From contig OY970386.1 in assembly GCA_963719465.1 (NCBI GenBank), positions 789,789-853,788 on the forward strand: a stretch of 64,000 nt of DNA, read 5' to 3'. The notes beneath the pieces are model-generated. The model was not told where the DNA came from. It made no database searches and worked only from the letters and a program-made list of their open reading frames with translations. Below are positions 7,183 to 50,753 of the stretch, piece after piece (position 1 is the stretch's first letter; every line of letters starts with the position of its first letter). The position numbers were made by a program, and so were the translations under genes. The stretch is from an uncultured Chloroflexia bacterium. Lineage in GTDB: Bacteria > Chloroflexota > Dehalococcoidia > DSTF01 > JALHUB01.

Positions 7183-7449
7183 CTAGAGGTCGTACGTGTC
7201 TTCGGAACGGCGCCGGACGTTAAGAACGAGAACGAGCCGGGCGGCATCGGATACGGTGTAAAGCGCTCGAAATCGGCCGATGCGCAGCCGCCACGTGGCC
7301 ACCGACACGTTCTTCACCTTGAGAACGCCGCGCGGCCGCGGATCATCCCTCAGGGCGGCGAGAGCCCGCGCGATACGGGCGGCGTCTTTCTTCGGCAACC
7401 CGTCTAAGTTCCGCTGAGCCAGCTTTGTCAGGTCTACCCGGTACGGCAA
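7183..7449 (-). CDS. type II toxin, RelE/ParE family
   Basis: An 88-aa protein (MPYRVDLTKLAQRNLDGLPKKDAARIARALAAL...RIGRFRALYTV...LVLNVRRRSEDTY) with the classic RelE/ParE pattern, downstream of the antitoxin in the same orientation. Confidence 0.75.
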   Translation of the reverse strand: MPYRVDLTKLAQRNLDGLPKKDAARIARALAALRDDPRPRGVLKVKNVSVATWRLRIGRFRALYTVSDAARLVLVLNVRRRSEDTYDL

Positions 7450-7669
7450 TCCCGCGCCTCTGCATGTATTCCTCCAGCGTCACGGCCGCTTCGGGACTGG
7501 CGGCATACTCCGCCAGTGAGCGTTCGGCGATGACGCCGTCCAGTTCGTCTTCAAACGTCTTGTCGAGGGCCAGGCGGATCAGCGCGGCCATCGTCGTCCG
7601 CCGGCGGAACGCGAGGACGCGCAGCGCCTCATGAGTATCCTCGTCCAGGTAGATCATCAGCTTCTTCAT
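7343..7669 (-). CDS. RHH/Phd-like antitoxin paired with the RelE/ParE toxin
   Basis: MKKLMIYLDEDTHEALRVLAFRRRTTMAALIRLALDKTFE is a ribbon-helix-helix antitoxin N-terminus. The annotated 3' end overlaps the toxin by about 107 nt, so its C-terminus is probably mis-framed by another indel. Confidence 0.65.
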   Translation of the reverse strand: MKKLMIYLDEDTHEALRVLAFRRRTTMAALIRLALDKTFEDELDGVIAERSLAEYAASPEAAVTLEEYMQRRGIAVPGRPDKAGSAELRRVAEERRRPYRAGSRRPEG

Positions 7670-7685
7670 CGTTCTGCCAGCTTCT

Positions 7686-7745
7686 CTGCTATCTTTCTGC
7701 TATCTTTCTGCTATCTTTCTGCTATCTTCCTGCTATCTTCTCTGC
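7686..7745. repeat. 11-bp tandem direct repeat (ctgctatcttt x5, last copies degenerate) in the TA promoter region
   Basis: Read directly: ctgctatcttt ctgctatcttt ctgctatcttt ctgctatcttc ctgctatcttctctg. It is followed by an AT-rich stretch containing catatatatatg. Confidence 0.85.
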
Positions 7746-7823: not shown

Positions 7824-7847
7824 GTAGGGGAGGTCTTTAGACCTCCC
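7824..7847. repeat. REP element copy (GTAGGGGAGGTCTTTAGACCTCCC, perfect 9-bp inverted repeat)
   Basis: An identical 24-mer recurs at 32361, 32425 and, inverted, at 32938, flanking the RAYT gene. Confidence 0.8.
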
Positions 7848-7926: not shown

Positions 7927-8931
7927 CTAGCCGAGGTAGTTCAGGCGCAGCGCCGCCCGCACCTCCGACATCGTCTGCTCGGCGACGCGCTTGCCAAAGC
8001 CGCTGCCCTCCGCGAGCGCCTCTCGAACAAGCTCCGGCCTGGCTTCGTAGCCGGCCCGGCGCTCCCGGATCGGCTCCAGCAGCGCGTTCAGCGCCCGCGC
8101 CAGCTTCTGCTTCACCTCGACGTTGCCTACTTTGCCGACGACGTAGCGCTCCTTGAGGTCCTGCACCTCTGGCTTATCGGGATTGAAGGCGTCGTGGTAC
8201 ATGAAGACCGGATTGCCCTCGACGTGGCCGGGGTCGTCGGCGTGGATGCGCGTCGGGTCGGTGAACATGCGCATCACTTTCTGCGTCACGGTCGCGGCGT
8301 CGTCCTTCAGGTAGATGGCGTTGTTCAGCGACTTGCTCATCTTCGCCTGACCGTCGATTCCGACCAGCCGTGGCACCCGTCCGACGAGCCCCTCCGGCTC
8401 CGGAAACACCTCGCCGAAAAGCCGGTTGAACCGCCGCGCGACCTCCCGCGTCATCTCCACGTGCGGCGCCTGGTCCTCGCCCGTCGGCACCAGGTTCGCC
8501 TTCGGCATCAGGATGTTCGCCACCTGCATGATGGGATAGGTGAAGAAGGCTACCGGCACCGCTTCCTTCGACCGCGACTCCAGCTCGTCCATCTCCGCCT
8601 TGAGCGTCGGATTGCGCTGCAGCCTGCCGAGCCCGACGTACCAGCTAAGCCAGACCGTCAGCTCGGCGTGCTCCGGTACCAGGCTCTCGATTACGAAGTG
8701 GCTGCGTTGCGGGTCCAGGCCGACCGCCAGCCAGTCCATCGCGATCTCGATGACGGACTGTCGCACGGTGTCGATGTCGTCGGCGTAGTCGGAGACCTGG
8801 TAGTCGGCGATCAGGAAGAAGCATTCGTACTCGTCCTGCAGCCGCACCCAGTTCTCGAGCGCGCCGGCGTAGTGCCCGAGGTGAAGCGGGCCGGTGGGCC
8901 GGATGCCGGTCAGAATGCGTTTCTTGGCCAT
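7927..8931 (-). CDS. trpS: tryptophan--tRNA ligase
   Basis: Class I aaRS motifs: TGIRPTGPLHLGHY (HIGH-like) and KMSKS. Confidence 0.9.
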   Translation of the reverse strand: MAKKRILTGIRPTGPLHLGHYAGALENWVRLQDEYECFFLIADYQVSDYADDIDTVRQSVIEIAMDWLAVGLDPQRSHFVIESLVPEHAELTVWLSWYVGLGRLQRNPTLKAEMDELESRSKEAVPVAFFTYPIMQVANILMPKANLVPTGEDQAPHVEMTREVARRFNRLFGEVFPEPEGLVGRVPRLVGIDGQAKMSKSLNNAIYLKDDAATVTQKVMRMFTDPTRIHADDPGHVEGNPVFMYHDAFNPDKPEVQDLKERYVVGKVGNVEVKQKLARALNALLEPIRERRAGYEARPELVREALAEGSGFGKRVAEQTMSEVRAALRLNYLG

Positions 8932-29155: not shown

Positions 29156-30000
29156 TCACGGGTCCGGGAGCAAGAACTCTATTCTTATCGGCTCGATCAC
29201 GCGATTCCGGACGTGATCCAAAATGGCGAATAGGATATCAGCCAATGGGCGATTCGTTGCTGATGGTCCTTCCTTCAAGACCACTTGCAAGGTAAAGACT
29301 GCATTCATGTTCGCTTTCGCAAAGTCTGCTGCGGCGGCGTTGTCAAATGTAGTATGGAGGATTTCTGTCCCGTCTTCCACAGGACCTGGTTCAATTTCCA
29401 AGGACAAAGGCCGGAGGACGGGATCAAGTGCGTACACCGCATCCCTGATGGTCGACTGGGTGATATGGAGCCGCCTGTGCTTGTCGATGTTCGTAAGCTC
29501 ATCGAGAATCCACAGGGGATGGCTGTGGGGGTCAAGGAGAGGATCTTCCTTCCGCATCTGATATGGTTGCAGCCCCTGGATCACCGCCTGCGCGTGAGGA
29601 TGAACTCCCCTCATTCTGTAAAGGCCGCTATGTGGAGCAGGGTCTCCCTTACGTTTTCCGTTACGTATCTTCTTAAGAAACTCGTCTTCGTCATCAAAAA
29701 TAGGGAAGGCCGTCTGCTTCAACTCCTTGCTGGAGTGCCTCACCGTCAGCGCCGTGATCAGATGGTCAAGGGCCAATCTAGTATTGTAGAGGAACTCACC
29801 GAGGATAACGTTCAGTCGAGGCGGCAGAGGTCGTCTAATCCTCGCTTGACAACTAGGTGCCCTACCTGCCCCACACCGTAGCTCTCGAATTCAATTGGGT
29901 TAGGGTTGTTGTCGCAGAAGGCGTTGATGGCCGCATCAGTCTCCGCCCAGTGCTCTTGCGCTCGATCGAGCTTGACGAGGTAGTCGGTCAAAATCGCCAT
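29156..30000 (-). CDS. hypothetical protein in a low-GC islet (possible HEPN-like Rx4H motif); probably one frameshifted gene
   Basis: ORF 29812..30000 (62 aa) and ORF 29156..29776 (206 aa) lie on the same strand. The latter frame stays open upstream to 29893 (...RLNVILGEFLYNTRLALDHLITAL...), so one indel probably splits one gene. GC here is about 50% versus about 66% in the flanks. I recognise no confident family. Confidence 0.45.
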
Positions 30001-30237
30001 GCGCTGTCCTCAGAACGTGAAGGACGCGGCAGTACAGGAAACCCCGAGGGGCACGAGATTCCTGCCGCCACGCGGGGAGACTTCATACGCCACCTGAAGA
30101 ATTCGGCGAAGCCCTCAACTCGGGCGCCCTCCCGGAGAGGCAGTTCCCCAGACTGGGCCCGCCCCTCCTTGAGGTGATTTTGGCGTTATGTGTAGCCTTC
30201 CTGGTAGCCCGCTGCCCGTCTAACGTCGCTTCCGCGA

Positions 30238-30266
30238 AGGCTGAGGGTTTCAACCCTCAGAACTGT
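30238..30266. repeat. palindromic element CAGTTCTGAGGGTTGAAACCCTCAG (inverted copy), downstream of prmA
   Basis: aaggCTGAGGGTTTCAACCCTCAGaactg is the reverse complement of the element at 59380 and a close relative of those at 59532 and 59682. Confidence 0.75.
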
Positions 30267-30283
30267 CTAATTATCCACATCGA

Positions 30284-31157: not shown

Positions 31158-32275
31158 CTAGCCGCCGAAGGTCTCTTTTACCTTGCCCATGAAGCCCTTG
31201 CCGTCGCGGTGCCCGCCGTCGTGCCCGCGCAGCGACTCGTCGAGCTCCTTCAGCAGCCGCTTCTGCTCTTCGCTCAAGTGCTTCGGCGTCACGACGTTCG
31301 CCGTAACGACCATGTCGCCGCGACCGCCGCCGCGCACGTGCGGCACGCCCTGCCGCTTCAGGACGAACTCGTGCCCCGACTGCGTGCCGGCGGGATCTTG
31401 AGCGGCTTGTCGCCGTCGAGCGTGGGAATCGTCTCTTCGTCGCCCAGAGTCGCCTGCGCGAAGCTCACATCCAGGTTCAGGAGAATGTCGTCGCCGTCGC
31501 GCTTGAACAGCGGGTGCTCCTGCACGGACAGCACGACGTAGAGGTTCCCGCGCCCGCCGCCGTACAGGCCCATCTCGCCCTCGCCGCTGATCCGTATCTG
31601 CGAGCCCTCGTCGACTCCGGCCGGTATCCGCACCTCCAGCTTGCGACTGCGCCGCTCCTGACCTGTACCCCGGCACTGCTCGCACGGCTTGTCGACGATC
31701 CGTCCCTCGCCGCCGCAGCGGTCGCAGGCCGTGACGTTGATGAACTGCCCGAAGATGCTGCGCTGCGTCCGCCGGATCTCCCCGCTGCCGTTGCAGACCG
31801 GGCACTTGCGCGGCTCGCTGCCCGGCTCGGCGCGCAGGCCGTTGCAGCGCGAGCAAGCCTCCTCGCGGCTGATTTCGACCTCTTTCGACGTGCCGAAGAC
31901 CGCCTCCTCGAACGTCAGGGTAAGGCGATAGCGCAGGTCGGAGCCTCGCTGCGGCTGGCGGCGTCTGGAGCGGGCGCCGCCGAAGAAAGCGTCGAAGATA
32001 TCGCCGAAGCCGCCAACGTCGAACCCCTCGAACGTGCGCGCGAAGGGGCTTTCGGCGCCGGCGTGCCCGAAGCGATCGTAAATAGCGCGACGCTCCGGGT
32101 CGGAGAGCACCTCGTAGGCCTCGTTTATCTCTTTGAAGCGCTCCTCCGCGCCGGGCTCCGGGTTGCGGTCCGGATGGAACTTCATCGCCAGGCGGCGGAA
32201 GGCGCGCTTTATATCGTCCTGGCTTGCGTTTCGCGGCACCCCCAGGACGTTGTAGTAATCGAGTTTAGTAGTCAT
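31158..32275 (-). CDS. dnaJ: chaperone DnaJ, frameshifted near 31375
   Basis: J-domain with HPD (KFHPDRNP), G/F region and four CxxCxGxG zinc-finger repeats in ORF 31358..32275. The C-terminal domain (...[38 protein letters not shown]) is in ORF 31158..31856. One G is missing in a ccggccggc run. Confidence 0.85.
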
Positions 32276-32360
32276 AGATAAGCATCGGTTGAATCGGCTT
32301 TCCCGCCGATCAACCTATGATAGCAGATTCGCGACGGTCTTTGGAGGTGCCACGGGAATG

Positions 32361-32384
32361 TAGGGGAGGTCTTTAGACCTCCCG
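32361..32384. repeat. REP element copy
   Basis: GTAGGGGAGGTCTTTAGACCTCCC, read directly. Confidence 0.8.
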
Positions 32385-32424
32385 CGTCTCTTTAGGCCTC
32401 CCACCCTAGGTGCGCCCCCAAATG

Positions 32425-32448
32425 TAGGGGAGGTCTTTAGACCTCCCG
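32425..32448. repeat. REP element copy overlapping the 3' end of the RAYT gene
   Basis: GTAGGGGAGGTCTTTAGACCTCCC. A degenerate half-site (ctctttaggcctccc) lies between this copy and the 32361 copy. Confidence 0.8.
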
Positions 32449-32988
32449 TGCATCCGCCGCATCCGACGCATCGTCGGCAAACGAACCAGAATATGGATAA
32501 GCGTCCGCCTCGTCCACCAGCCCAGCTCTAACTGGATTCTCTCTCACATACGTCCTCACATCCAGCAGGTCTTCTTCCCGTCGTAGCACGTGATCGTAGT
32601 AGCTCTTCTGCCAGAATGGACCGCTGCTGTCTAGCAACTGATTACAGAGGAATCCCGATCTCAGCTTGAAATGATGCACGAAACTCATCACGTCGACGCC
32701 CTCGGCAGCCATAACCACCAGATGCAGGTGGTCGGGCATGAAGCAATACTCCAGGACTTCAACGCCGGATCTCGTGGCACTGTCTGCCAAACAGCTAAGA
32801 CAGATTTCGACAGTTCCTGGGAATGAGAAGGCCCGTCGCCCGTCTTGCACGCGGGCGGTCAGGAAGAAGGCTCCGCCGCTTCGATATACTTCACGTGGCA
32901 GTCTGTTGGGCTTACGTCGACGGAATCCGCAAGAAGCGGGAGGTCTAAAGACCTCCCCTACATCACTCGGACCACCGCCGTCGCGCAT
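32437..32988 (-). CDS. REP-associated tyrosine transposase (RAYT, IS200/IS605-like TnpA_REP)
   Basis: ...GGAFFLTARV...EYCFMPDHLHLVVM (HuH motif) ...FWQKSYYDHVLRREEDL (catalytic Tyr region). The start codon is uncertain because a REP lies inside the 5' end. Its ORF-track start is 2 nt from the leuB stop. Confidence 0.75.
   Translation of the reverse strand: MRDGGGPSDVGEVFRPPASCGFRRRKPNRLPREVYRSGGAFFLTARVQDGRRAFSFPGTVEICLSCLADSATRSGVEVLEYCFMPDHLHLVVMAAEGVDVMSFVHHFKLRSGFLCNQLLDSSGPFWQKSYYDHVLRREEDLLDVRTYVRENPVRAGLVDEADAYPYSGSFADDASDAADAREV
32938..32961. repeat. REP element copy in inverted orientation inside the 5' end of the RAYT ORF
   Basis: GGGAGGTCTAAAGACCTCCCCTAC. Confidence 0.8.
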
Positions 32989-32989
32989 C

Positions 32990-34054
32990 TCAGACCAACG
33001 ACGCCACGAAATCGCCCATCTCCGACGTGCTCATCCCCATCCGGCCCGCGTTCAGCGACTTGATTCGCCCGCTGCCCAGCGCCTTCACCACCGCCTGCTC
33101 GATGCGGTCCGCCGCCTGCTCCTCGCCCAACTCGGCGACCAGCATCTGCACAGCGCCGATGGCCGCCAGCGGGCAGATGACGTCCTGGCCGGTGTACTTC
33201 GGCGCGCTGCCGCCGATCGGCTCGAACATCGATACGCCCTGCGGGTTGATGTTGCCGCCGGCCGCGATGCCCATGCCGCCCTGGATCATCGCCCCCAGGT
33301 CAGTGATGATGTCGCCGAACATGTTCTCGACGACGATGACATCGAACCACTCCGGGTTCTTCACGAACCACATGCACGTCGCGTCAACGTGCGCGTACTC
33401 GCGCCGGATGTCCGGGTAGTCCGCCTCGCCGACCTCGTTGAACGCGCGCCACCAGGTGTCGTGGACGAACGTCAGCACGTTCCTCTTGCCGACGAGGTGG
33501 AGCTGCTTCATCTTGTTGCGCTTTCGCGTCAGGTCGAAGGCGTAGCGGATCGCGCGCTCGGCCCCGAATCGCGTCGTCAGGTGCACCTGCGTCGACACCT
33601 CCTGCGGCGTCCCCTTGTACTGGAAGCCGCCCATGCCGCCGTACAGCCCCTCCGTGTTTTCGCGCACGACCACGAAGTCGATGTCCTCCGGCCCCTTGCC
33701 CTTCAGCGGGCAGTCGACGTTCGGATAAAGCTTGACCGGCCGCAGGTTGATGTACTGGTCGAGCTCGAAGCGCAGGCGAAGGAGGATGCCCTTCTCCAGA
33801 ATGCCGGGCGCGACGTCCGGGTGGCCGATGGCTCCCAGGAAGATCGTGTCGAAACGCCGCAGCTCATCGATGGCCCCATCGGGCAGCGTCTCGCCCGTGC
33901 GCATGTAGCGCTCGCCGCCGAAGTCGAAGGTTGTCGTCTCGTACTTGAAGCCGGTCGCCTGCGCTGCTGCCTCCAGCACCTTCAGCCCTTCCCGCACGAC
34001 TTCTGGGCCCGTCCCATCGCCTGGTATGACAGCTATTCGATGCAACTCCGTCAT
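32990..34054 (-). CDS. leuB: 3-isopropylmalate dehydrogenase
   Basis: IAVIPGDGTGPEV...NLRPV...VRENTEGLY...NMFGDIITD. These motifs and its position in the leu operon support the call. Confidence 0.85.
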   Translation of the reverse strand: MTELHRIAVIPGDGTGPEVVREGLKVLEAAAQATGFKYETTTFDFGGERYMRTGETLPDGAIDELRRFDTIFLGAIGHPDVAPGILEKGILLRLRFELDQYINLRPVKLYPNVDCPLKGKGPEDIDFVVVRENTEGLYGGMGGFQYKGTPQEVSTQVHLTTRFGAERAIRYAFDLTRKRNKMKQLHLVGKRNVLTFVHDTWWRAFNEVGEADYPDIRREYAHVDATCMWFVKNPEWFDVIVVENMFGDIITDLGAMIQGGMGIAAGGNINPQGVSMFEPIGGSAPKYTGQDVICPLAAIGAVQMLVAELGEEQAADRIEQAVVKALGSGRIKSLNAGRMGMSTSEMGDFVASLV

Positions 34055-43636: not shown

Positions 43637-43876
43637 AGAAAAGACCCGTCCCAAAGGGATCCCATGGGACGGGACCGTACCACCCTTCTTGTCGCCTGAG
43701 GCGACCGGTTTCAGCGCGTTAACGGTCGCTTTCCGGCCGGACCTGGCGAAATCGCTCAGTCCGGCGGCTCCGGGGCGAGTTCAGGCTCTTCGTGTCGCCG
43801 GCTCTCACCATTCCGCCGGCTCTCTGAGACAGGAAGCTGGCCTTACTACTCCCCATCACGGCCTTTGTCTTATGTG
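43637..43876 (-). promoter_or_regulatory. T-box riboswitch leader upstream of the ilv-leu operon (candidate Leu specifier CUC)
   Basis: Minus strand: a GA-motif start (GAUGGGGAGUAGUA), a CAGAGAG AG-box, GAACUCG in a specifier-like position, and the T-box sequence AAGGGUGGUACGG. It ends with the terminator CCCGUCCCA-UGGGAUCCCUU-UGGGACGGG plus UCUUUUCUU. About 330 nt remain before ilvB. Confidence 0.55.
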
Positions 43877-47677: not shown

Positions 47678-48026
47678 CCTCCGATCCGACTTCTCGAATC
47701 TGCCGTTGCCGGTTTCACCACTGGCTCGCCGAGGGCCTCGGTGACCATGCGACAGGCTCGAAGCCCATCGCCACGCCCCGCGGGGGGGACACGCCCTCGG
47801 TTCAACGCCTCAACAGACAGTAGCTTCTCTGGGAGACAATCTGCCTCCTCACACAGGAAAACGGCCGCCGCGAGCCGCCGTTACAGCCGCCGCGGCCGCC
47901 CGTCGAATCTACGGCAGCGTTTTTCACGCTTTCTTCACGTTCTTCGACTGCGATTCACGGCGACCGCACTTGGCGAACCTATGCTGAAGGGTCGGCGAGT
48001 CATCAAGAAACGAAGGAGTTAGAGAA

Positions 48027-48371: not shown

Positions 48372-50210
48372 CTACTTCTGCCGGCGCCTCTTCGCGTACC
48401 ACCCGCCGACGGCAACAGTCGCCAGAACCATCGCCACTATGGCCAAGCCGGTAAGCTGGGCGACCAGCCCCGGCACGTTGATTCCTAGGGGACCGATGCC
48501 TGAGGCGGCTGCCCCAAAGCCGGCAACGTCCGGCGCTTCCGCGATACCGCCGACGGCAGCCGGCCCCGGGGTGGGAGTGTCGGTCGGTGTAACCGTCGCA
48601 GTACTCGTACCCGTAGCCGTGGGGGTGGGCGTTGGGTTGGACGGGTCTTCAATCACCGATACGCTGTCATACCCCGAGTTCGTCACGTAGATGCGGTTCG
48701 TGTCGGGGTTGACGGCCACGCCCAAGGGGCCACCCCCGACCGCCACGGTGGCGACGACCGCGTTGCTGTCGCCGCCGATGACGGAGACGTTGTTGCCGTA
48801 GTAATTCGTCACATAGATGCGATTCGTGCTGGGGTTGACGGCCACGCCCCAGGGGTAACTGTAGCTCCCGACCGCCACAGCGGCCACGACCGTGCTACTG
48901 GCGCCGTCGATCACGGAGACGTTGTTGCTGGTGTAGTTCGCAACGTAGATTCGGTTCGTGTTGGGGTCGACGTCAACGCCGTCGGGGTAACTCCCAACCG
49001 CTACGGGGGTGGCGACGACCGTATTGCTGGCGCCGTCGATGACGCAGACGCTGTTCTCGTCATCGTTCGCCACGTAGATGAGGTTCGTGGTGGGGTTGAC
49101 AGCCATGCCCTGAACCGCCCCCCCAACCGCTACGTGGTCGACGACCGTGTTGTTGGTGCCGTCGATGACGGAGACGTTGCCACCGCCCGTCACGTAAATG
49201 CGGTTCGTGCTGGGGTTGACGGCCACGGCGCAGCCCCAGCCCGGTACGGTGGCGACGACGGTGTTCCTTGTGCCGTCGATGACGGAGACGTTGTTGTACG
49301 TCACGTAGATGAGGTTCGTGGTGGGGTTGACAGCCGCGCCGCAGGAGGCAGACCCCGCCTCTACGCTGGCGACGACGGTGTTGCTTGTGCCGTCGATGAC
49401 GGAGACGGTGCCGTCGCCCCAGTTCGTCACGTAGATGAGGTTCGTCTTGGGGTTCACGGCCACGCCCCAGGGCCAATGCCCGACCCCTACGGTGGCGACG
49501 ACCTTGTTGCTGGCGCCGTCGATGACGGAGACGTTGGGGCCGTTGGGGCTGTACCAGCACGGCACGTAGATGAGGTTCGTGTTGGGGTTAACGGTTACGA
49601 CCCCGGGGCCGCTCCCGACCGCTACAGTGGCGACGACCGCGTTGCTGGCGCCGTCGATGACGGAGACGTTGTTGTCGTTGAAGCTAGTGACGTAGATGCG
49701 GTCCGTGTTGGGGTTGACGGCCACGCCGTCGGGGTAACTCCCGACCGGTACGGTGGCAACGACCATGTCGCTGGCGCCGTCGATGACGGAGACGCTGTTG
49801 CCGCCATAGTTCGCCACGTAAATGCGGCCCGTGTCGGGGTTGACGGCTACAGCCCTGGGGCTACTCCCGACCGCCACGATGGCCACCACGGTGTTGCTGC
49901 CGCCGTCGATGACGGAGACGTTTCTGCTGCCCCAGTTCGCCACGTAGATGAGGCCGGTGTTGGGGTTGACGGCCACGCCCTCGGGACTGTGTCCGCCCGG
50001 GGCTGTTCCGATGGTGGCGATGACGGTTGGGTCGCCGGCGGCTGCGCGGGCGCCGGGTGCCGGCCCCCGCAGGGCAAGAGCGCCCACCACTATCGCAAGC
50101 GCCACTGCCCCGGCCAGTCCCGCAACCGCCAATCTGGGAACGATTTCAGAGCGCATCATGCACCTCCGGAGGATATGAGTGCCACCACCCTGGCGGGGAT
50201 GGCGCAACAT
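48372..50210 (-). CDS. YVTN-family beta-propeller repeat protein with PT-rich linker and C-terminal TM/GGWYAKRRRQK anchor
   Basis: About 11 tandem copies of the 40-residue unit (YV[AT]N.....VSVIDG.SNTVVATV.VG..P.GVAVNP.TNRIYV) follow a signal peptide. The C-terminus reads ...VGGIAEAPDV...TM helix...GGWYAKRRRQK. Confidence 0.85.
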   Translation of the reverse strand: MLRHPRQGGGTHILRRCMMRSEIVPRLAVAGLAGAVALAIVVGALALRGPAPGARAAAGDPTVIATIGTAPGGHSPEGVAVNPNTGLIYVANWGSRNVSVIDGGSNTVVAIVAVGSSPRAVAVNPDTGRIYVANYGGNSVSVIDGASDMVVATVPVGSYPDGVAVNPNTDRIYVTSFNDNNVSVIDGASNAVVATVAVGSGPGVVTVNPNTNLIYVPCWYSPNGPNVSVIDGASNKVVATVGVGHWPWGVAVNPKTNLIYVTNWGDGTVSVIDGTSNTVVASVEAGSASCGAAVNPTTNLIYVTYNNVSVIDGTRNTVVATVPGWGCAVAVNPSTNRIYVTGGGNVSVIDGTNNTVVDHVAVGGAVQGMAVNPTTNLIYVANDDENSVCVIDGASNTVVATPVAVGSYPDGVDVDPNTNRIYVANYTSNNVSVIDGASSTVVAAVAVGSYSYPWGVAVNPSTNRIYVTNYYGNNVSVIGGDSNAVVATVAVGGGPLGVAVNPDTNRIYVTNSGYDSVSVIEDPSNPTPTPTATGTSTATVTPTDTPTPGPAAVGGIAEAPDVAGFGAAASGIGPLGINVPGLVAQLTGLAIVAMVLATVAVGGWYAKRRRQK

Positions 50211-50675: not shown

Positions 50676-50753
50676 CGGGGTGTAGCTCAGTTAGGCTAGA
50701 GCGCACGGTTCGGGACCGTGAGGTCGGCAGTTCAAATCTGCCCACCCCGACCA
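50676..50753 (+). tRNA. tRNA-Pro (anticodon CGG), CCA encoded
   Basis: CGGGGTG-TA-GCTC-AGTTAGGCTA-GAGC-G-CACGG-TTCGGGA-CCGTG-AGGTC-GGCAG-TTCAAAT-CTGCC-CACCCCG-A-CCA. The cloverleaf pairs cleanly; anticodon loop UUCGGGA. Confidence 0.85.

Follow-up and report, generated by a model that had tools for sequence, protein, structure and literature searches.

A putative REP-associated tyrosine transposase and its cognate REP elements at the leuB-dnaJ locus of an uncultured Chloroflexota bacterium

A 24-nt palindrome recurs four times in the 64,000 nucleotides of an uncultured Chloroflexota (Dehalococcoidia-like) genome analyzed here (hereafter the window), and three of its copies crowd around one small gene between leuB and dnaJ. 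What are these palindromes, and what ties them to the gene? An initial annotation, made from the DNA alone, had interpreted the palindrome as a REP family and the gene as its REP-associated tyrosine transposase (RAYT). The analyses below support that interpretation: the locus is very probably a REPtron, that is, a RAYT, present once in the window, flanked by inverted cognate REPs and accompanied by at least one dispersed REP copy.

The palindrome and its copies in the window

An exact search of the 64-kb window for the 24-mer GTAGGGGAGGTCTTTAGACCTCCC returned four sites, at 7824-7847 (+), 32360-32383 (+), 32424-32447 (+) and 32938-32961 (-). All four were perfect, no fifth site was found in the window when up to three mismatches were allowed, and 100 dinucleotide-preserving shuffles gave 0 matches, so that none is expected by chance. 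This bears out the annotated 24-nt repeat with four sites, one of them inverted, and the 9-bp inverted-repeat arms given for it are real. The annotated starts at 7824 and 32938 were right, and the other two (32361 and 32425) were each one base too high.

Written as a single-stranded oligonucleotide (TGTAGGGGAGGTCTTTAGACCTCCCG), the unit runs from a YGTAG head through a GC-rich 8-bp stem with arms GGGAGGTC/GACCTCCC and a TTTA loop to a 3' G. The predicted single-stranded DNA fold, an 8-bp stem closed by the 4-nt TTTA loop (-8.2 kcal/mol, z = -4.3), leaves the GTAG head unpaired. The element is thus a palindromic stem-loop in the 20-40 nt range with a 5' GTAG tag, as expected of a REP, and the GTAG head was present in 30/30 copies from the window and from Chloroflexota MAGs. 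Scanning the window for GTAG-headed hairpins gave seven matches against about three in shuffled sequence; four of the seven are the REP described here and none of the others was convincing. No Rfam family matched at the REPs at the gathering threshold. Elsewhere in the window, gathering-level matches were obtained for a T-box leader at 43662-43868 (-) (98.2 bits), a c-di-GMP-II-GAG riboswitch aptamer at 47698-47821 (-) (48.2 bits) and a tRNA at 50676-50750 (+).

Only the copy at 7824-7847 lies away from the RAYT cluster within the 64 kb. This solo REP is intergenic, outside every open stretch of at least 150 codons, and occupies the spacer between a small ORF (7343-7669, minus strand) and the 3' end of a 334-aa minus-strand ORF (7927-8931), whose stop is about 80 nt away. 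The 334-aa ORF was read by eye as trpS from its HLGH and KMSKS motifs, and the isolated copy does therefore sit near the 3' end of a putative trpS, as had been annotated. The same spacer holds a short tandem repeat, CTGCTATCTTT, in about six copies (7670-7745), about 80 nt from the solo REP and directly upstream of the start of the small ORF, the product of which appeared ribbon-helix-helix-like by eye.

The other three copies flank the RAYT gene. A distal and a proximal 3' REP (32360-32383 and 32424-32447) form a direct pair, 64 nt from start to start, and both are inverted relative to the 5' REP (32938-32961), which is in sense orientation with respect to the gene. The direct pair is the only REP doublet in the window, and a 3' doublet with 62-63 nt spacing is also found at two related loci (L109 and L033). 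Between the two 3' copies lies what reads as a decayed REP-like remnant, gcgtctctttaggcctccc (32384-32402, +), which by hand alignment matches the REP at 14/20 positions; its right arm and loop are kept, the left arm has degenerated and the GTAG head is missing. Another perfect palindrome, CTGAGGGTTTCAACCCTCAG, closely follows prmA at 30234-30262; it lacks a GTAG head and may be a terminator or belong to another repeat family.

The protein encoded between the REPs

The minus-strand ORF at 32437-32988 would encode a protein of 183 aa. Its translation passed the NCBIfam equivalog model REP_Tyr_transpos (NF047646; 98.3 bits, cutoff 80), failed the transpos_IS200 model (NF033573; 29.1 bits, cutoff 55) and matched Pfam Y1_Tnp with 44.7 bits (cutoff 23). 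The closest solved structure was that of E. coli TnpAREP (PDB 4ER8; phmmer E = 7.7e-07, 32 bits), and weak matches (E ~0.006) were obtained to the IS200/IS605 TnpA structures 2XM3 and 2XO6. Only one copy of the gene is present in the 64-kb window.

The active site of TnpAREP comprises H59-M60-H61 and Y115 (PMC3479197). In the window protein, the predicted metal ligands of the HuH motif, H87-L88-H89 (codons at 32722-32730, minus strand), align with the HMH of 4ER8, and the predicted catalytic Tyr147 (codon at 32548-32550, minus strand) aligns with Y115; the TnpAREP metal ligand H123 corresponds to Ala155. An alignment of the window protein with 15 homologs (16 sequences) showed H87, H89, Y147, T44, N151 and P152 to be invariant. 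RAYTs are marked by a conserved N-terminal Thr and by NP(L/V)(R/K)xG after the catalytic Tyr (Nunvar et al. 2010, PMC2817692), and both marks are present: Thr44 near the N-terminus and the RAYT-specific motif NPVRAG (N151-P152-V153-R154-A155-G156, codons 151-156) next to Tyr147. On these grounds the ORF is predicted to be a REP-associated tyrosine transposase. The annotation as an HuH tyrosine transposase agrees with the model scores, and the Y1_Tnp alignment that had been proposed as a check shows the HuH and Tyr147 in place.

The public gene call for the window RAYT is a 100-aa fragment starting at Met84 (P0003; 32437-32736, minus strand), and that for the L109 ortholog is 97 aa long (L109 5307-5600). 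Both shortened calls drop the N-terminal half of the domain, and the RAYT system is invisible in current annotation as a result.

Gene order and overlap of the REPs with the reading frame

Read along the minus strand, leuB (32990-34054) is followed by the RAYT gene and then by dnaJ, all three being co-oriented. The GC content of the RAYT gene is about 0.55-0.58, against about 0.65-0.70 in the neighboring genes. Its ATG (32988-32986) is found one base past the leuB stop, which suggests that its expression is coupled to that of leuB. At the other end, the proximal 3' REP supplies the TAA stop (32437-32439) from its loop; the 5' REP occupies codons 10-17 (VGEVFRPP). The three clustered copies had been described as bracketing the transposase; they do surround the ORF, but they overlap its ends instead of merely bracketing it.

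Translation of the 5' REP depends on where the protein starts. No in-frame ATG, GTG or TTG was found between the 5' REP and the RRKPNRLP motif common to all aligned homologs, so that the N-terminal start probably lies upstream of the REP. Conservation between the window and L109 is poor over the nine codons ahead of the REP; in L109 the start is a GTG at the position equivalent to the window ATG. The 5' REP has the same frame and arrangement at six loci (L023, L025, L026, L105, L106 and L109). Translation of the 5' REP as a family-wide trait was considered and rejected, the frame of the REP relative to the RAYT core being uniformly distributed (17/21/19) over 57 related loci. A translated 5' REP is retained here as a probable property of the window's subclade only, because there no start codon is available downstream of the REP. 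The stop codon in the 3' REP loop was likewise dismissed as a special feature: it was found at 14/49 related loci, as expected for an ORF entering CTAAAG/CTGAAG in one of three frames.

Two observations were made on the neighboring genes. The dnaJ gene of the window (31158-32275, minus strand) seems frameshifted, with the J domain and zinc finger in a 305-aa ORF (31358-32275) and the C-terminus in an overlapping ORF of another frame that ends at 31158. Its orthologs in L108 and L109 are intact (370 aa), and the frameshift is either a homopolymer error of long-read assembly or a real pseudogene. In L108, L109 and L110 (around 740-1990), leuA and leuC of the leucine gene string are separated by a MazE-PIN toxin-antitoxin pair.

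REPs at related RAYT loci

A metagenome scan with the RAYT alignment yielded 80 loci, and a hairpin detector was applied to 82 related loci. A 5' GTAG hairpin in sense orientation was detected at 57/82 and an inverted 3' hairpin at 49/82. The longest inverted repeat shared exactly by both RAYT flanks, sought with no hairpin required, was mostly a GTAG-headed palindrome (GTAGGGGCGACCTTCAGGTCGCCC and GTAGCTGCAGGCCTTTAGGCCTGC are examples). The hallmark REP-RAYT arrangement claimed for the window, with inverted flanking REPs, thus recurs in the orthologs and at most related loci.

Across the 82 loci the hairpin center CTTYAG is conserved and the stems are lineage-specific. One stem position is T:A in the window and L109, G:C in L023/L025/L026 and A:T in L106, and L105 carries a one-sided G/A intermediate at this position on both flanks. 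The REP stems thus covary between RAYT lineages, which is the kind of co-evolution of RAYT and REP that Nunvar et al. described (PMC2817692).

Many of the contigs with a RAYT terminate at REPs and measure about 1 kb. The contig of L024/L025 begins (positions 1-26) with a REP copy joined to the 3' coding sequence of leuB; this copy and the next seven bases (31 nt, GTAG...CCC + GAGCTGC) are identical to the 5' REP of the RAYT that the contig carries farther on, and an assembly artifact at the repeat is therefore more likely than a REP inside leuB. Recognition of the REP/RAYT system explains both the short-contig breaks and the gene-end palindromes in these MAGs.

Dispersal of the REP in other genomes

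The exact 20-nt palindrome was searched for in the GTDB representative genomes, a set of which the source genome is not a member, and 22 stretches were found (L001-L022). Nine Chloroflexota/Dehalococcoidia MAGs hold 26 copies, and 26/26 carry the YGTAG head and the 3' G. Three further matches, in a gammaproteobacterium, a Bacteriovoracaceae MAG and a Vulcanimicrobiota MAG, have no such head (0/3); these are chance matches in unrelated phyla and serve as an internal control. Viral contigs gave 0 matches. The family is accordingly not restricted to the four sites of the window; such a restriction would have spoken against a REP.

The family looks low-copy, including in the source genome: related MAGs hold at most seven exact copies, and only 4/9 hold more than one, the MAGs being incomplete and the search limited to exact matches. 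Classical REPs exceed 100 copies per genome. A tblastn search found no RAYT beside the dispersed REPs at any of the 22 loci in other genomes, so that the hairpin travels without the gene. Open stretches of at least 150 codons cover 12/24 REP copies as against 94% of random positions, and the 12 covered copies lie near the ends of their open stretches. REP copies therefore avoid coding sequence and are found mostly at gene ends.

Pairs of the BIME type, which had been proposed as something to look for, are present in related genomes. Inverted REP pairs 50-70 nt apart occur in six stretches (L002, L003, L005, L011, L018 and L022) and often combine two stem families, and direct clusters occur in three (L001, L012 and L021). 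The 22 loci also hold other GTAG-headed families with different stems. Four REP insertions were found at orthologous sites of different MAGs, with flanks 86-96% identical, and such shared insertions are old. Their conservation was rejected as evidence of selection, as the copies were ascertained by exact match.

Two other regions of the window were compared with these stretches. At 29156-30280, between an rsmE-like gene and prmA, the GC content is lower (0.51-0.56) over about 1.1 kb, and this block includes an uncharacterized 206-aa ORF (29156-29776, minus strand). In a relative (L016/L108) the equivalent spot is about 75 nt long and carries a copy of the window REP in its place; the block may have entered a REP site by insertion or replacement. 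The region at 48646-49985 is internally repetitive with a period of about 126 nt, as seen from staggered BLAST matches. It resembles repetitive regions of a related MAG (L016, L006 and L012) at 70-80% identity and is probably a gene for a repeat-domain protein.

Inheritance and selection at the locus

How long has the RAYT gene been at this site? In L109 (GCA_936421135.1) the order leuB-RAYT-dnaJ is the same, with LeuB 97% and RAYT 83% identical to the window, and its REPs belong to the window family, differing by a single arm mismatch and a single ATAG head. L108 (MFD03726.bin.1.230), with a LeuB 96% identical, has a 113-nt leuB-dnaJ spacer that contains neither RAYT nor REP. Six exact REP copies are found elsewhere in the L108 genome; because the family is kept there without a RAYT at this site, REP persistence may not need the leuB-dnaJ RAYT. 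L110 has a different neighbor. RAYT directly follows leuB also in L023, L025, L026 and L107, in which LeuB is 84-95% and RAYT 48-65% identical. No clean excision footprint could be recognized between the occupied sites (window, L109) and the empty site (L108), and about 50 nt downstream of leuB also differ between them.

Between the window and L109, the RAYT gene has a dS of 0.64 and an omega of 0.16-0.19, and leuB a dS of 0.45 and an omega of 0.044. These values indicate that the RAYT is under purifying selection, yet its protein evolves several times faster than LeuB. As the dS values are similar, the RAYT is about as old at the site as its neighbor leuB. Together with the gene order in relatives, this shows that the cassette has been vertically inherited at leuB-dnaJ in a group of Dehalococcoidia-like genomes, and it is lost or absent in some of them. 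The lack of a close ortholog in a protein search was rejected as a sign of loss, since the L109 ortholog itself was absent among the 120 matches listed.

Proposed mechanism and alternative explanations

By homology to E. coli TnpAREP, the RAYT of this very probable REPtron would bind its REP folded into a single-stranded DNA hairpin and would read the 5' GTAG base-specifically, and the HuH-bound metal and Tyr147 would cut and rejoin DNA beside the hairpin. Occasional activity of this kind could seed new REP copies and doublets in extragenic DNA and keep the REP family homogeneous. It is conceivable, if only tentatively, that in this Dehalococcoidia-like clade the RAYT now rides as a fixed passenger, inherited vertically, in the leu-dnaJ gene string, with a frame that opens at the leuB stop, crosses its own 5' REP (translated as VGE-F-PP) and closes in the loop of its 3' REP; the DNA substrate of the enzyme would then also form an mRNA hairpin just past the start codon. 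More speculatively, this in-ORF hairpin might throttle or autoregulate translation of the RAYT. If true, the picture of domesticated, co-evolving REPIN-RAYT systems would extend beyond Proteobacteria.

One could instead see a fossil REPtron, in which the RAYT mobilizes nothing, the gene is a passenger of the leuB-dnaJ transcript and the REPs are relics or are used by the host, mRNA 3'-end stabilization and protein binding being possible uses. The low REP copy numbers would suit a fossil, as would the signs of decay, both in L109 (arm mismatch, ATAG head) and in the window remnant at 32384-32402. So would the missing cassette in L108, which has the same REP family, and the age of several REP insertions common to MAGs with 86-96% identical flanks. 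We nevertheless regard this as unlikely. Over a dS of about 0.64 the RAYT has kept an omega of 0.16-0.19 and all its catalytic and RAYT-specific residues, and the four window REPs are identical over 24 nt. In addition, the stems covary with the RAYT lineage, which argues for continued RAYT-REP interaction on evolutionary time scales.

An autonomous IS200/IS605 element with subterminal hairpins that resemble REPs by chance is a very improbable explanation. The IS200 model scores far below its cutoff (29.1 against 55) where the RAYT model passes, there is a single copy in the window, and the hairpins on either side share one sequence, inverted with respect to each other, which also occurs alone, without the gene, at many places. 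A dS similar to leuB's and a chromosomal site conserved across genomes do not suit such an element either, even if the Pfam Y1_Tnp match, the compact unit of about 630 nt with a hairpin at either end, the GC below that of neighboring genes and the variable presence among close relatives are what one would expect of it.

It is hardly credible that the palindromes serve simply as intrinsic terminators or operators and have no relation to the neighboring gene: REP copies do lie at gene ends and the one at 32364-32383 (+) appeared terminator-like in a simple scan, but that call is on the strand opposite the local genes, the others have no T-run, the single-stranded YGTAG head found in 30/30 copies has no role in termination, and inverted hairpins flank RAYT homologs systematically across 82 loci.

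Read as a REPtron, the locus is of value chiefly for annotation and natural history, and it opens no new mechanism. It provides a well-resolved case from uncultured Chloroflexota that combines stem covariation, vertical inheritance at one site and presence/absence among close relatives, features of RAYT-REP systems so far documented mostly in Proteobacteria.

Comparison with known systems

The REPtron of E. coli K-12 (TnpAREP = YafM, PDB 4ER8; PMC3479197) likewise has a nuclease of the HuH, single-Tyr fold family, a 5' GTAG at the foot of a GC-rich hairpin, a gene lying between inverted REPs and REPs dispersed in extragenic DNA, and the inverted pairs that join two stem families in relatives of the window are as in E. 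coli BIMEs. The two systems also differ. Sequence similarity between the proteins is only distant, the H123 metal ligand of TnpAREP is an Ala in the window RAYT, and the latter is extended at its N-terminus by 31 aa, within which the REP lies. In E. coli the REPs are imperfect and have a bulge that matters for binding (PMC3479197), whereas the stem of the window REP is perfect and has no bulge; the copy number of the window REP is apparently far below that of E. coli REPs.

The TnpA proteins of IS200/IS605 elements (IS608, ISDra2; 2XM3, 2XO6) belong to the same Y1 HuH superfamily and recognize hairpins in single-stranded DNA, as is proposed for the window RAYT. The ends of these elements carry different left and right hairpins on one strand (PMC3479197). 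The window RAYT departs from them in failing the IS200 model, in its inverted identical ends, in its single copy in the window and in a hairpin that is dispersed without the gene.

Its closest counterparts are in the RAYT literature. RAYT families are described with inverted flanking REPs, RAYT-REP co-evolution, faster evolution than neighboring genes and housekeeping-like inheritance as a single copy (PMC2817692, PMC5581495). The window RAYT matches the traits given by Nunvar et al. and Bertels et al., from the Thr and NP(L/V)(R/K)xG to the inverted REPs, the co-evolution and the fast evolution. In the classification of Bertels et al. (2017), Group 4 RAYTs are common in Cyanobacteria, Chlorobia and Caldilineae and have flanking 16-mer counts of about 14 (PMC5581495); membership of Group 4 would fit the low REP copy number here. 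The survey by Di Nocera et al. (2013) reports GTAG REPs in Chloroflexi, REPs that overlap the 5' or 3' ends of the tyrosine-transposase ORF ("5'ov/3'ov") or supply its stop codon, genomes in which several REP families each have a REPtron, and location downstream of genes (PMC3733652), and all of these features were seen here. That survey, as far as consulted, names neither the stem family GGGAGGTC/GACCTCCC nor the uncultured host lineage. The window locus is an ordinary example of the known REP/RAYT system in an uncultured Chloroflexota genome, and all of the REP/RAYT behavior observed agrees with the published accounts (PMC3733652, PMC2817692, PMC5581495).
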